In this document: piece by piece, positions 6,662 through 8,707 of the stretch
Layout: each line of letters opens with the position of its first letter
How positions within the stretch are numbered: the stretch's first letter is position 1
DNA from: an uncultured Parachlamydiaceae bacterium
Lineage (GTDB): Bacteria > Chlamydiota > Chlamydiia > Chlamydiales > Parachlamydiaceae
Direction: 5' to 3'
NCBI GenBank assembly: GCA_963742415.1
Contig: CAVULX010000003.1
Location: forward strand, 640,001-704,000
DNA: 64,000 nucleotides
The notes under the pieces: model-generated
What the model was told of the DNA's origin: nothing
What the model saw: the letters and a program-made list of their open reading frames with translations, nothing else
Database searches by the model: none
Program-made: the position numbers and the translations under genes

Positions 6662-8707
6662 ATGCAGAGAAATTCAATGCCTAGACAAGAAGAACTAAAT
6701 ACGATCTTATTGGTAGATGATGATAGGCTGGTTTTGCTAGCTTTGCAGGAAACTCTTCAACGGGAAGGATATCGAATTTTGACTGCTTCTAATGGAGAAG
6801 AGGCAGTTCATGTTCTTGCCAATAAGCCTGTGGCTTTAGTCATTTGCGATCAAAAAATGCCGGGTATTTCAGGGATGGATGTCTTAAAGAAAGCTCAAAC
6901 ACTTCAACCTGATACCGAAAGGATCATTATTACAGGAAATACCGATCTAGATATTGTTTTGCAAGCCGTTAATATCGGTCATGTGAGCCAGTTTATCCTT
7001 AAGCCTTGGGATGAAGCCTCATTAAAACAAACTATTGCGACGTCGATTGATAAATTTCGACTCTTTGTCGAAAACAAAAATTTACATGACTTGATTCTGT
7101 CCCAACATCAAGCCTTAGCCAACACCCACGAAATCTTGAGAAGGGAGCTCAATATAGGAGCGCGCATCCACGAAACTTTGTTGGAAGGGAAGATCCCAGC
7201 AAATGTTCCGGGATTCCACATCCACGCCACGACCATCCCCTCCCATGAAATCGATGGGGATTTTTTCGAGTTTTATCGGCCGGCTTCCAATATTTTAGAT
7301 ATCGTGGTCGGAGATGTGATGGGAAAAGGGATCCCTGCAGCTCTTGTCGGAACGGCGGTAAAAAGCAATTTGATCCATTATGCCCTCCCTTTTTCCCATG
7401 CTCTCATTGTAAGTAAACAAGGATTTTGGGATGAAGATTTGCTGCAGCCGAATGAAATATTGGCCCATCTCCATGAAAAGTTGACCTCTCCACTGATCCA
7501 ATTAGAATTTTTTGTCAGTCTTTTTTATGGACGTTTTAACTTACAAAAACAGACTTTGACTTATGTAGATTGCGGTTCAACACGTCCGATTCACTATCTA
7601 GCTCAAGAGAAAAAGGCTGTTTCACTCAAAGGAGGAGGCCTCCCTTTAGGGGCGATAGAAAATCAAGCTTATGAATTGCACACAACCTCTTATGCAGTGG
7701 GGGATTTTTTTGTGTTTTTCTCCGATGGGGTGACAGAAACACAGTCCAAAAACAAAGAATTTTTTGGATTTGATAGGCTTATTGAAATCATTGAAAATCA
7801 TTCAGATAAAGATCCGACAGCCTTAATTGATATCATTGAGGCCTCTTTAAAGTCTTTTTCTAAACAGGAGACTTTTGATGATGACATAACGCTGATTATC
7901 GTGAAAGTGGCTTCTCTTGCGCTTGCTCTCTCTAGTCCGCATCCAGTCGTCGAGTTCAGGGCTTCCTTATCCCAGTTGCAAGCGGTTAGGGAATCCGTTG
8001 CCCGTCTTTGCTTGCAAGCCCCTGGGGATTCCGAGGCATTGTCGAGCATGCTCCAACTTGCAATCAACGAAGCATTTTGCAATATTGTGAAGCATGGGTA
8101 CAAAGGAAAAACCGATGGCATCATTCGCCTCCGTAACGAAATTACAGATAAAGGGATCAGCATAGAAATCTCGGATCAAGGGGATGCTTTTAACCCGGGG
8201 AAAGTTAAGGAACCGAGCCTTGCAGGAAGCGAGACGAATGGTTTTGGCTTATTTATCATTAGAGAGATCGCGGATCGCGTTTCCTATGTTCCAAAAGAAG
8301 CACAAGATGGTTGGAATCACTTATGTATTTATAAAACATTTCTGCAGAAAGGACATTCTATGCAATTTGCACAAGTTATAGAAGACAATGTAACCATTAT
8401 TACCCCCCAAGGGGATAGCTTAGACGCTAAAGGGGCACCGCAATTAAAAGAAAATGTAATAAATTTAATTACCAGCCATGATGCGACACATGTTGTTTTT
8501 GACATGAGCAATTTAAAGTTTGTCGATAGCTCCGGATTAGGCGCCCTCCTTTCAATCTTGCGAGTGCTTCATAGCATGGGAGGGGAGCTTAAGCTGGCAA
8601 AAATGAATAAATCAGTGCGTGCTCTATTCGAATTGGTTTCCATGCACAAGATTTTTGAAATTTACAACAGCAAAGAAGAGGCTATTCATTCTTTTAAAGA
8701 GAAATGA
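6662..8707 (+). CDS. Fused response regulator / PP2C (RsbU/SpoIIE) phosphatase / RsbW-type Ser kinase / STAS anti-anti-sigma protein
   Basis: REC: LLVDDD, ICDQKMP, LKPW. PP2C: GDFF, GDVMGKG, FSDG, DDIT. HATPase: NEAFCNIVKHG, ISDQG, GFGL. STAS: FVDSSGLG. Confidence 0.9.
   Translation: MQRNSMPRQEELNTILLVDDDRLVLLALQETLQREGYRILTASNGEEAVHVLANKPVALVICDQKMPGISGMDVLKKAQTLQPDTERIIITGNTDLDIVLQAVNIGHVSQFILKPWDEASLKQTIATSIDKFRLFVENKNLHDLILSQHQALANTHEILRRELNIGARIHETLLEGKIPANVPGFHIHATTIPSHEIDGDFFEFYRPASNILDIVVGDVMGKGIPAALVGTAVKSNLIHYALPFSHALIVSKQGFWDEDLLQPNEILAHLHEKLTSPLIQLEFFVSLFYGRFNLQKQTLTYVDCGSTRPIHYLAQEKKAVSLKGGGLPLGAIENQAYELHTTSYAVGDFFVFFSDGVTETQSKNKEFFGFDRLIEIIENHSDKDPTALIDIIEASLKSFSKQETFDDDITLIIVKVASLALALSSPHPVVEFRASLSQLQAVRESVARLCLQAPGDSEALSSMLQLAINEAFCNIVKHGYKGKTDGIIRLRNEITDKGISIEISDQGDAFNPGKVKEPSLAGSETNGFGLFIIREIADRVSYVPKEAQDGWNHLCIYKTFLQKGHSMQFAQVIEDNVTIITPQGDSLDAKGAPQLKENVINLITSHDATHVVFDMSNLKFVDSSGLGALLSILRVLHSMGGELKLAKMNKSVRALFELVSMHKIFEIYNSKEEAIHSFKEK

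Follow-up and report, generated by a model that had tools for sequence, protein, structure and literature searches.

Partner switches and polysaccharide control

Partner switches are textbook regulators of sigma factors. Only recently, and in few systems (Vibrio Syp and Anabaena Hep), has evidence emerged that some of them directly control polysaccharide enzymes. In the Vibrio system, the regulator SypE has the domain order kinase-REC-PP2C. Rv1364c of Mycobacterium tuberculosis carries a sensor, a PP2C phosphatase, a kinase and a STAS domain in one chain (PMC7693655, PMC12143880), and it phosphorylates as well as dephosphorylates its own STAS domain (PMC7693655). For HsbR, the unphosphorylated form acts as a kinase and the phosphorylated form as a phosphatase (PMC6482189). 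The Anabaena components are described as HenR (REC-PP2C), Alr3423 (kinase) and All4160 (STAS and Bac_transf); there, phosphorylation of All4160 is inhibitory, the unphosphorylated STAS domain is the active form, and control over the polysaccharide is post-translational (bioRxiv 10.64898/2026.04.08.717354). Here, we describe a chlamydial regulator with receiver, phosphatase, kinase and STAS domain in a single polypeptide, found in a 64,000-nucleotide stretch of DNA (the window) from an uncultured Parachlamydiaceae bacterium.

Domain structure of the regulator

The gene (6662..8707, + strand) codes for 681 amino acids in a single open frame that begins with ATG; in the database copy, which has 676 amino acids, the start is placed five codons further in. 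Domains were called with Pfam, each scored against its curated cut-off. The N-terminal receiver (Response_reg, residues 15-125, 6704..7036, 86.1 bits against a cut-off of 30.2) has its acceptor at Asp63 (6848-6850), along with Asp19/20, Thr91 and Lys114. It is followed by a SpoIIE/PP2C serine phosphatase (PF07228, residues 213-416, 7298..7909, 133.4 bits, cut-off 25), a GHKL serine kinase of the RsbW/SpoIIAB type (HATPase_c_2, PF13581, residues 432-544, 7955..8293, 81.8 bits, cut-off 27.4), which also matches NCBIfam RsbW (E 6.7e-12), and a STAS domain (PF01740, residues 573-674, 8378..8683, 68.2 bits, cut-off 22.6), all on the + strand. The STAS domain has the motif V-D-S-S-G-L-G, beginning at residue 621, and the first Ser after the Asp, Ser623 (8528-8530, + strand), is presumably the phospho-acceptor, as in SpoIIAA and RsbV. 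The signature residues of an RsbU/RsbW/RsbV-type module are all there: the PP2C aspartates, the N-box Asn and glycine boxes of the GHKL kinase, and the D-S-x-G of the STAS domain. The four-domain anatomy proposed in the initial annotation is therefore borne out, with every domain above its Pfam cut-off, and so are the intact catalytic and acceptor residues, including the DSSG of the STAS domain.

An AlphaFold2 model of the protein (mean pLDDT 84.7) predicts a long helix of 57 residues (118-174, 7013..7183, + strand) leading from the receiver to the phosphatase; with a pTM of 0.49, the packing of the domains in this model is uncertain. Crossing helical linkers of such a kind have been proposed as a means of controlling PPM phosphatases (PMC12143880). 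The best solved match by sequence for the half comprising receiver, linker and phosphatase was RssB of Pseudomonas aeruginosa (3eq2, E 4.8e-34), and Foldseek also retrieved RssB for the phosphatase half (3f7a, E 7e-25). The crystal structure of the RsbU and RsbW domains of Rv1364c was also among the top Foldseek matches (3ke6, E 1.2e-21), at an identity of 17-18%. Judged by its sequence, the regulator is a predicted single-chain partner switch of the response-regulator type, with four domains and residues that are kept across its family.

A widespread family

Among the matches listed, 120 of 120 homologues carry the same four Pfam families, with lengths of 667-729 amino acids, so the fusion is not an accident of the assembly. 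In the domain-architecture search suggested by the initial annotation, the four-domain order recurs, at the same length, in more than 100 independent clusters. The regulator is thus a member of a widespread family, and its architecture is common in databases. Residue conservation was followed in 138 four-domain sequences (that of the window, the 119 closest clusters and 18 distant representatives). The STAS residues Asp622, Ser623 and Gly625 were kept in all 138, as were Glu470, Asn474 (N-box) and Gly529 of the kinase, with Asp505 present in 134. The phosphatase is nearly as invariant (Asp200 in 136/138, Asp218 in 137/138, Asp355 in 136/138 and Asp407 in 135/138). Conservation is somewhat lower in the receiver, with Asp63 retained by 130 and Lys114 by 131 of the 138 sequences. 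Since eight members have no acceptor Asp, some would work without receiver phosphorylation. A three-domain form, REC-PP2C-kinase, made up 45 of 150 representatives among those listed. A FastTree phylogeny built from 135 rows of the PP2C-kinase core contains 40 rows that bear a STAS domain, and 37 of these group on the same side of a branch whose local support is 99%.

Genomic context

The regulator heads a conserved operon in which the next gene, starting 26 nucleotides after it, codes for a Bac_transf priming phosphoglycosyl transferase of 247 amino acids (8734..9477; Pfam 228 bits, with a domain-level match to TIGR03025). This transferase has no STAS domain by Pfam and carries an N-terminal extension of about 50 residues that is conserved across 22 orthologues. 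The following genes, all on the + strand, code for a protein combining an NTP_transferase, a left-handed beta-helix and the C-terminal half of a Bac_transf domain (9458..10945, Pfam/NCBIfam); a WecG/TagA/CpsF glycosyltransferase fused to two STAS domains (10942..12456, Pfam); a TPR protein with a weak PrsT-like match (12574..14673); an exosortase of the EpsH family (14670..15488; PF09721 87 bits, cut-off 25.7; TIGR04178 44.7 bits, cut-off 23); a conserved hypothetical protein of 181 amino acids (15422..15967), with no match in Pfam or NCBIfam, that occupies the same position in relatives; an EpsI-type, exosortase-associated DUF3485 protein (15980..16585); and a GT1/GT4 glycosyltransferase (16605..17804). 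The WecG-STAS-STAS architecture was present in most of 120 homologues among the matches listed. The STAS domains of this transferase were also considered as general kinase substrates and were ruled out as a general mechanism, the Ser not being conserved. The position of the regulator as the first gene of a polysaccharide operon agrees with what had been read from the window at the outset.

The order of these genes is partly maintained in relatives. Bac_transf is the next gene after the regulator at 16 of the 22 close loci and at 5 of the 18 distant ones (and not at the remaining 6 and 13, respectively), and the NTP-transferase gene lies downstream in 13/17 close and 5/13 distant loci. Among close loci, 10 of 13 have the TPR gene downstream and 5 of 12 the exosortase; the WecG-STAS-STAS gene lies no more than 6 kb from the regulator at 6 of 14 and is absent nearby at 8. 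On the other side, rpoN (sigma-54; 5042..6538, - strand, three Sigma54 domains) is divergent from the regulator, as initially annotated, and this arrangement recurs in 14 of the 19 close loci whose upstream DNA extends far enough. No sigma-54 promoter with up to two mismatches to the consensus was found in the intergenic stretch (6539-6661), so we treat the conserved rpoN neighborhood as synteny only; window-wide, there were 50 matches to the consensus versus 48.6 by chance. Promoter and terminator scans from 6400 to 18200 gave counts not above those of shuffled sequences and were for this reason not used to set operon boundaries.

In a phylum sample of 300 scored genomes, a regulator match was found in 31, a strong exosortase match in 18 and both in 16, counts that include related and thus not independent genomes. 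The remaining 15 genomes in which the regulator was matched lacked a strong exosortase match, so the family as a whole is not bound to a single output. The genome studied here has an exosortase with its EpsI-type DUF3485 partner and four PEP-CTERM candidates, whose matches are at or just over the cut-off. Gene order kept in relatives, together with co-occurrence with exosortase genes across the phylum, strengthens the proposed link to polysaccharide, and the regulator probably switches surface-polysaccharide synthesis on and off. Environmental chlamydiae are thereby seen to carry a putatively regulated exosortase/PEP-CTERM polysaccharide locus. Our literature search, with most subscription journals outside its reach, returned no report of a regulated exosortase locus in Chlamydiae, nothing joining partner-switching with exosortase, nothing on STAS-domain WecG glycosyltransferases and nothing relevant on XssP, STAS and priming.

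Input to the receiver

The whole genome contains two HisKA matches, both outside the window, which agrees with the early observation that the window holds no histidine kinase. The sole Hpt domain seen in the genome is inside a CheA-like protein. A hybrid kinase (HisKA-HATPase-REC-REC-Hpt) was found directly upstream of the regulator, on the same strand, in all six Desulfobacterota loci examined. An orphan PAS-HisKA kinase of the chlamydial genome is a candidate for the cognate kinase of the regulator. At one locus, its orthologue (57% identity) is located 2.6 kb downstream of the regulator; such proximity was found in only 1 of 66 related loci.

A proposed mechanism and its alternatives

By analogy with HsbR, SypE and Rv1364c, we propose that phosphorylation of the receiver tips the balance between kinase and phosphatase on the protein's own Ser623, and that the STAS output acts on the polysaccharide machinery, a reading to which we assign a probability of roughly 0.55. 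While the receiver is unphosphorylated, the RsbW-type kinase would phosphorylate Ser623 in the STAS domain of the same protein, either within one chain or between the two chains of a dimer. Phosphate delivered to Asp63 by a histidine kinase or Hpt protein from outside would then send a signal through the 57-residue helix to activate the PP2C domain, which would remove the phosphate from Ser623. With less confidence, the dephosphorylated STAS domain may be the active output, and its state might gate polysaccharide priming at the enzyme level, with no sigma factor as the target. The most likely target of the STAS domain could then be the adjacent Bac_transf priming transferase, which would match the Anabaena parts.

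A fold test of the STAS region (residues 560-681) against the Bac_transf protein gave a score of 0.33, the best of three controls reaching 0.00; contacts agreed by at least 74% between runs, and the partner pLDDT was at least 78. The calibration covered 157 solved complexes, of which 116 reached the mark, and 215 mismatched pairs, of which 2 did; passes at scores of 0.60 or less comprised only 18 of the 157 solved complexes and both of the passing mismatches. A pass at 0.33 is weak, and at that level a pass will be false more often than true unless the pair was already likely before the test. We offer only tentatively a more specific version, in which the dephosphorylated STAS domain might dock on the cytoplasmic extension of about 50 residues of Bac_transf and license the first polysaccharide step, the partner being an enzyme and not a sigma factor. 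If true, obligate intracellular chlamydiae would have phosphorelay control over an exosortase/PEP-CTERM surface system, and one ancient circuit would have been solved in two ways, by fusing STAS to the transferase in cyanobacteria and to the kinase here.

A classical anti-sigma switch, in which the kinase sequesters a sigma factor (RpoD-like or a small second one) unless displaced by the dephosphorylated STAS domain, would place the control at transcription. The kinase is homologous to RsbW/SpoIIAB by the Pfam and NCBIfam matches given above, RpoS is bound by both CrsR and HsbR (PMC6482189), and SigF is bound in vitro by Rv1364c (PMC7693655). However, candidate sigma targets are few, as Sigma70_r2 matched the genome only twice, once in a frame of 109 amino acids, and the sigma role could be filled by a STAS protein and an RsbW-type kinase that the genome encodes as stand-alone proteins. 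The tight operon link to polysaccharide enzymes across phyla resembles instead the enzyme-level control of Anabaena, and we consider the anti-sigma switch unlikely.

The output could also pass through the WecG-STAS-STAS enzyme, with the kinase of the regulator binding or phosphorylating the STAS domains of the enzyme and its own STAS domain competing for the kinase. This enzyme is in the same operon, close to the regulator in the 6 of 14 close loci mentioned above; the second STAS domain of the window's enzyme keeps D-S-V-G, and a Phycisphaerales locus has a kinase and a STAS protein of the same subtype, each encoded separately, in a row with WecG-STAS-STAS. Such a route nonetheless seems improbable, given an alignment of 12 proteins (that of the window and 11 orthologues) in which the acceptor Ser is missing from the STAS domains of most, and from the first of these domains in every case; besides, the fused enzyme is not nearby in 8 of the 14 loci, and in two loci WecG comes without STAS. 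Finally, a decayed or chimeric gene without function, arising from an assembly join or as a fusion pseudogene, is close to refuted by a frame open over 681 codons, catalytic residues that are kept, the same length and order in more than 100 independent clusters and the model pLDDT of 84.7.

Comparison with known systems

The initial annotation had implied that the fusion is unique, with SypE named for comparison. That uniqueness is not supported, since Rv1364c is a single-chain precedent, the REC-PP2C-kinase proteins HsbR and CrsR are closer than SypE, and the architecture is common in databases. Its description as a self-contained phosphoswitch was also too strong, because the protein does not include its output partner and its receiver depends on a phosphodonor from outside. 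With regard to Rv1364c, sensor, phosphatase, kinase and STAS substrate come in the same order in a single polypeptide. However, its sensor is a PAS domain (PAS-PP2C-GHKL kinase-STAS), whereas the chlamydial regulator has a phospho-accepting receiver; Rv1364c is tied to SigF, not to a polysaccharide operon, and the fold alignment has an identity of only 17-18%. RssB (REC-PP2C) gives the best solved match by sequence and fold for the receiver-linker-phosphatase half but lacks both the kinase and the STAS domain.

HsbR/HsbA of Pseudomonas and CrsR/CrsA of Shewanella share with the regulator the order REC-PP2C-kinase (PMC6482189). An Hpt phosphorelay feeds HsbR, and Hpt hybrid kinases adjoin the Desulfobacterota members of the family described here. 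The STAS partners of HsbR and CrsR, in contrast, are separate proteins, while in the chlamydial regulator this domain is fused (residues 573-674), and their outputs are FlgM, HsbD and RpoS, against the polysaccharide/exosortase operon context of the chlamydial locus. In Vibrio fischeri, SypE and SypA are similar in that, within a polysaccharide locus, a response regulator containing both a kinase and a PP2C domain controls the state of a STAS protein; SypA is, however, separate, exosortase is absent, and the chlamydial order is REC-PP2C-kinase-STAS. The Anabaena proteins HenR, Alr3423 and All4160 are the same parts, and the chlamydial switch is genetically coupled to Bac_transf (at the 16/22 close and 5/18 distant loci given above). 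In Anabaena, the STAS domain is on the transferase and the parts are at three separate loci, whereas in the chlamydial case it is on the kinase/phosphatase and the transferase is the next gene. The regulator family adjoins a priming transferase in at least two phyla and, being a single chain beside a transferase gene, offers a compact in vitro system for enzyme-level control, with one protein and one transferase. What is new is the layout, with receiver, phosphatase, kinase and STAS domain in one chain heading a polysaccharide operon; the underlying kind of switch is already known from the systems above.

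Domain organization and conservation of the regulator

The four-domain regulator occupies a single open frame of 681 codons (6662..8707, + strand) in the ORF listing of the window. Pfam recovered the domains in the order proposed by the initial annotation, all well over the curated cut-offs: a receiver (residues 15-125, 86.1 bits), a SpoIIE/PP2C phosphatase (213-416, 133.4 bits), an RsbW-type HATPase_c_2 kinase (432-544, 81.8 bits), and a STAS domain (573-674, 68.2 bits). No NCBIfam equivalog covers the full-length chain; the one model to exceed its cut-off is the generic anti-sigma-factor-antagonist TIGR00377.

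Residue conservation was assessed in 138 aligned four-domain sequences (the window's, those of the 119 clusters closest to it, and 18 from distant representatives). The receiver keeps its acceptor Asp63 in 130, Lys114 in 131, and Thr91 in 126; eight members lack the acceptor Asp and are pseudo-receivers. The PP2C aspartates are kept in 136 (Asp200), 137 (Asp218), 136 (Asp355), and 135 (Asp407) sequences, while Glu470, Asn474, and Gly529 of the kinase and Asp622, Ser623, and Gly625 of the STAS domain are each present in all 138, so that the presumed STAS phospho-acceptor described as intact (Ser623) is invariant. The window's regulator has the full set of these residues. To judge from the alignment, all four activities look alive in the family; the regulator is real and conserved, and very probably functional.

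An AlphaFold2 model (22-row alignment; mean pLDDT, 84.7; pTM, 0.49) is confident for the single domains and not for their mutual packing. It places a helix of 57 residues (118-174) between receiver and phosphatase. Helical linkers of this sort, crossing in a dimer, are proposed as a general switch of PPM phosphatases, among them Rv1364c and proteins of the receiver-PPM type (PMC12143880). The top fold matches were Pseudomonas aeruginosa RssB (3f7a, E 7e-25) and the RsbU and RsbW domains of Rv1364c (3ke6, E 1.2e-21), and the closest PDB sequence match was also RssB (3eq2).

Distribution and descent of the family

Of 8000 candidates scored in a word-indexed search, 632 proteins matched at E <= 1e-10. 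The same four Pfam families, in the same order, recur in all 120 among the matches listed (667-729 aa; 47-60% identity to the regulator, the window's own excluded), and those few that carry names belong to metagenome bins of Chlamydiales or Chlamydiae. Genome records place the four-domain form, at 42-60% identity, in bins assigned to Parachlamydiaceae, Waddliaceae, and Parachlamydiales and, at full length and 31-34% identity, in bins of Desulfobacterales and other Deltaproteobacteria. Within a sample of 300 scored genomes of the phylum, 31 match the regulator at E <= 1e-60, every one of them from the order to which the window belongs; several large families of the sample have no match (e.g., 0/62 in f9 and 0/46 in f6).

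An exhaustive phmmer search against 1.84 billion cluster representatives returned 1182 matches at E <= 1e-30. The window's protein and 150 listed representatives of these were sorted by which of its four domains they matched: 19 have REC-PP2C-kinase-STAS, 45 REC-PP2C-kinase, 45 another N terminus with PP2C-kinase, 15 PP2C-kinase-STAS, 7 another N terminus with PP2C-kinase-STAS, and 20 are shorter forms that certainly include some gene fragments. In a FastTree phylogeny of the PP2C-kinase core (135 rows, unrooted, long branches flagged), a branch with 99% local support splits 48 rows from 87. On the smaller side are all four-domain proteins but one (18 of 19), the complete set of 14 PP2C-kinase-STAS rows, and five of the seven with another N terminus plus STAS; on the larger side only three rows have a STAS domain. 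This near confinement to one side argues for an old STAS fusion with largely a single origin.

Genomic context

The regulator stands first in a polysaccharide operon and divergent from rpoN, as had been annotated. rpoN lies 123 nt upstream, and the Bac_transf sugar transferase (8734..9477, +) starts 26 nt downstream, followed by an NTP-transferase/beta-helix gene, a gene that joins a WecG glycosyltransferase to two STAS domains (10942..12456, +), a TPR gene, an exosortase, a conserved hypothetical, DUF3485, and a GT1 glycosyltransferase. Gene order was counted at 23 loci with at least 40% identity to the regulator and 20 below 40%, the denominators being the loci with enough flanking DNA. Bac_transf is directly downstream at 16/22 close and 5/18 distant loci; the corresponding figures are 13/17 and 5/13 for the NTP-transferase, 10/13 and 0/7 for the TPR gene, 6/14 and 1/12 for WecG-STAS-STAS, 5/12 and 0/5 for the exosortase, and 14/19 and 1/16 for divergent rpoN. 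This gene order is the strongest evidence on the output of the regulator. In the phylum sample, the regulator was found in 16 of 18 strong-exosortase genomes versus 15 of the 282 others, a pattern rather than a statistic since kin genomes are not independent; any exosortase match was present in 21/300.

The exosortase and its DUF3485 partner (14670-16585, +) belong to a chlamydial genome, which elsewhere encodes four short proteins with PEP-CTERM matches (L090-L093). The product of 9458-10945 (+) unusually combines a sugar-1-phosphate nucleotidyltransferase with a left-handed beta-helix and the C-terminal half only of Bac_transf; its gene accompanies those for the regulator and the full Bac_transf protein in Chlamydiota and some Desulfobacterota loci. 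Other genes of the window include a eukaryote-like F-box and WD40 repeat protein (3676-5028, +), of a type common in amoeba-associated chlamydiae, and a 543-aa protein whose sole domain match is RelA_SpoT (18057-19688, -), located in the lowest-GC stretch (0.32 versus ca. 0.41).

Input to the receiver

In line with the initial annotation, which saw no cognate histidine kinase in the window, the two HisKA matches of the genome are both outside it. In all six Desulfobacterota loci examined, the upstream neighbour is a same-strand hybrid kinase ending just before the regulator, with HisKA, HATPase, two receivers, and Hpt, plus a periplasmic binding domain in four of the six. This is the HptB-HsbR arrangement, but in cis, and the adjoining Hpt-bearing kinases speak for a receiver that, in this family, truly accepts phosphate from a phosphorelay.

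The window's genome has few kinases: an orphan PAS-HisKA-HATPase kinase of 600 aa ca. 35 kb upstream of the regulator (L095:1944-3746, -), an NtrB-like kinase adjoining an NtrC-like regulator, a KdpD-type kinase, and an Hpt-bearing CheA-like protein. Across its full length the PAS kinase shares 57% identity with one whose gene, in a Chlamydiota bin (L018), follows the regulator at a distance of 2.6 kb, a neighbour seen at only 1/66 loci; it is a candidate for the cognate kinase and no more. The CheA-like protein (Hpt-HATPase-CheW-REC) belongs to a chemosensory-type cluster with no obvious motility output (L094, G000:C4:959500-969500), together with CheB and a REC-SpoIIE phosphatase, after which comes the KdpD-type kinase. 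The PP2C protein of this cluster may be the input to the stand-alone STAS/RsbW pair of the genome.

Candidate outputs

The adjacent priming transferase is our first choice as target. The logic, receiver to phosphatase and kinase to STAS, would be that of the relatives. In Anabaena, according to a 2026 preprint (bioRxiv 10.64898/2026.04.08.717354), All4160 is an N-terminal STAS fused to a Bac_transf transferase, and the state of its Ser74 is governed by HenR (REC-SpoIIE) together with the kinase Alr3423. The active form of All4160 is the non-phosphorylatable one; in a henR mutant, polysaccharide gene transcription still rises. That one lineage fuses the two argues for cooperation of STAS and transferase in the window. 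The transferase orthologues have a conserved cytoplasmic N-terminal extension of ca. 50 residues before the membrane helix (8734-8890, +, residues 1-50), predicted to be helical at low to moderate confidence. Five of its residues (Arg12, Leu19, Tyr23, Lys38, and Trp42) do not vary among 22 sequences representing two phyla. This extension is a plausible docking site. Folding STAS residues 560-681 with the transferase scored 0.33 (best of three controls, 0.00), with contact agreement between runs of at least 74% and partner pLDDT of at least 78. The mark was reached by 116/157 solved complexes and 2/215 mismatches in calibration, where passes at 0.60 or less came from only 18 of the 157 complexes and from both passing mismatches; without a good prior case for the pair, a pass at such a low score is wrong more often than right, and the result counts as weak support for the pair, a small push and no more.

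The STAS domains of the WecG fusion could instead receive the signal, and a Phycisphaerales bin has three genes in a row, for a stand-alone kinase, a stand-alone STAS protein that shares the C-terminal motif of the window's STAS, and WecG-STAS-STAS. However, among 12 aligned WecG-STAS-STAS proteins, the window's plus 11 orthologues, few keep the acceptor serine, and the first STAS domain never does, so these domains, if they take part, would be binding partners rather than substrates. The WecG-STAS-STAS architecture is itself widespread: most of its 120 homologues among the matches listed combine WecG and STAS families, in Chlamydiota bins, Deltaproteobacteria, and Congregibacter. In the Phycisphaerales locus (L070:7353-9791, -), the kinase and STAS genes are in the same frame with two stop codons between them, directly upstream of WecG-STAS-STAS, and a PP2C-kinase gene with a long N terminus is divergent. 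As for sigma factors, the whole genome has only two Sigma70_r2 matches, and its stand-alone STAS protein, stand-alone RsbW-type kinase, and REC-PP2C gene beside the Che-like cluster could serve the usual Rsb pathway of the phylum.

Comparison with known systems

The uniqueness implied by the initial annotation was not supported: the four-domain form is recurrent in databases, and Rv1364c of Mycobacterium tuberculosis is already a partner switch in one chain. REC-PP2C-kinase regulators are known in HsbR and CrsR, but with a separate STAS protein. A literature search thin on subscription journals found in print neither the order REC-PP2C-kinase-STAS, nor a link of such a regulator to an exosortase/PEP-CTERM locus, nor an exosortase system in Chlamydiae, nor a STAS-fused WecG enzyme. 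Partner switches within polysaccharide loci are represented by SypE/SypA and by HenR/Alr3423/All4160, the latter being the closest functional precedent, with the same four parts, here in two adjacent genes and cut elsewhere. The regulator is a new domain arrangement, in a new context, of a known type of switch and not a new type.
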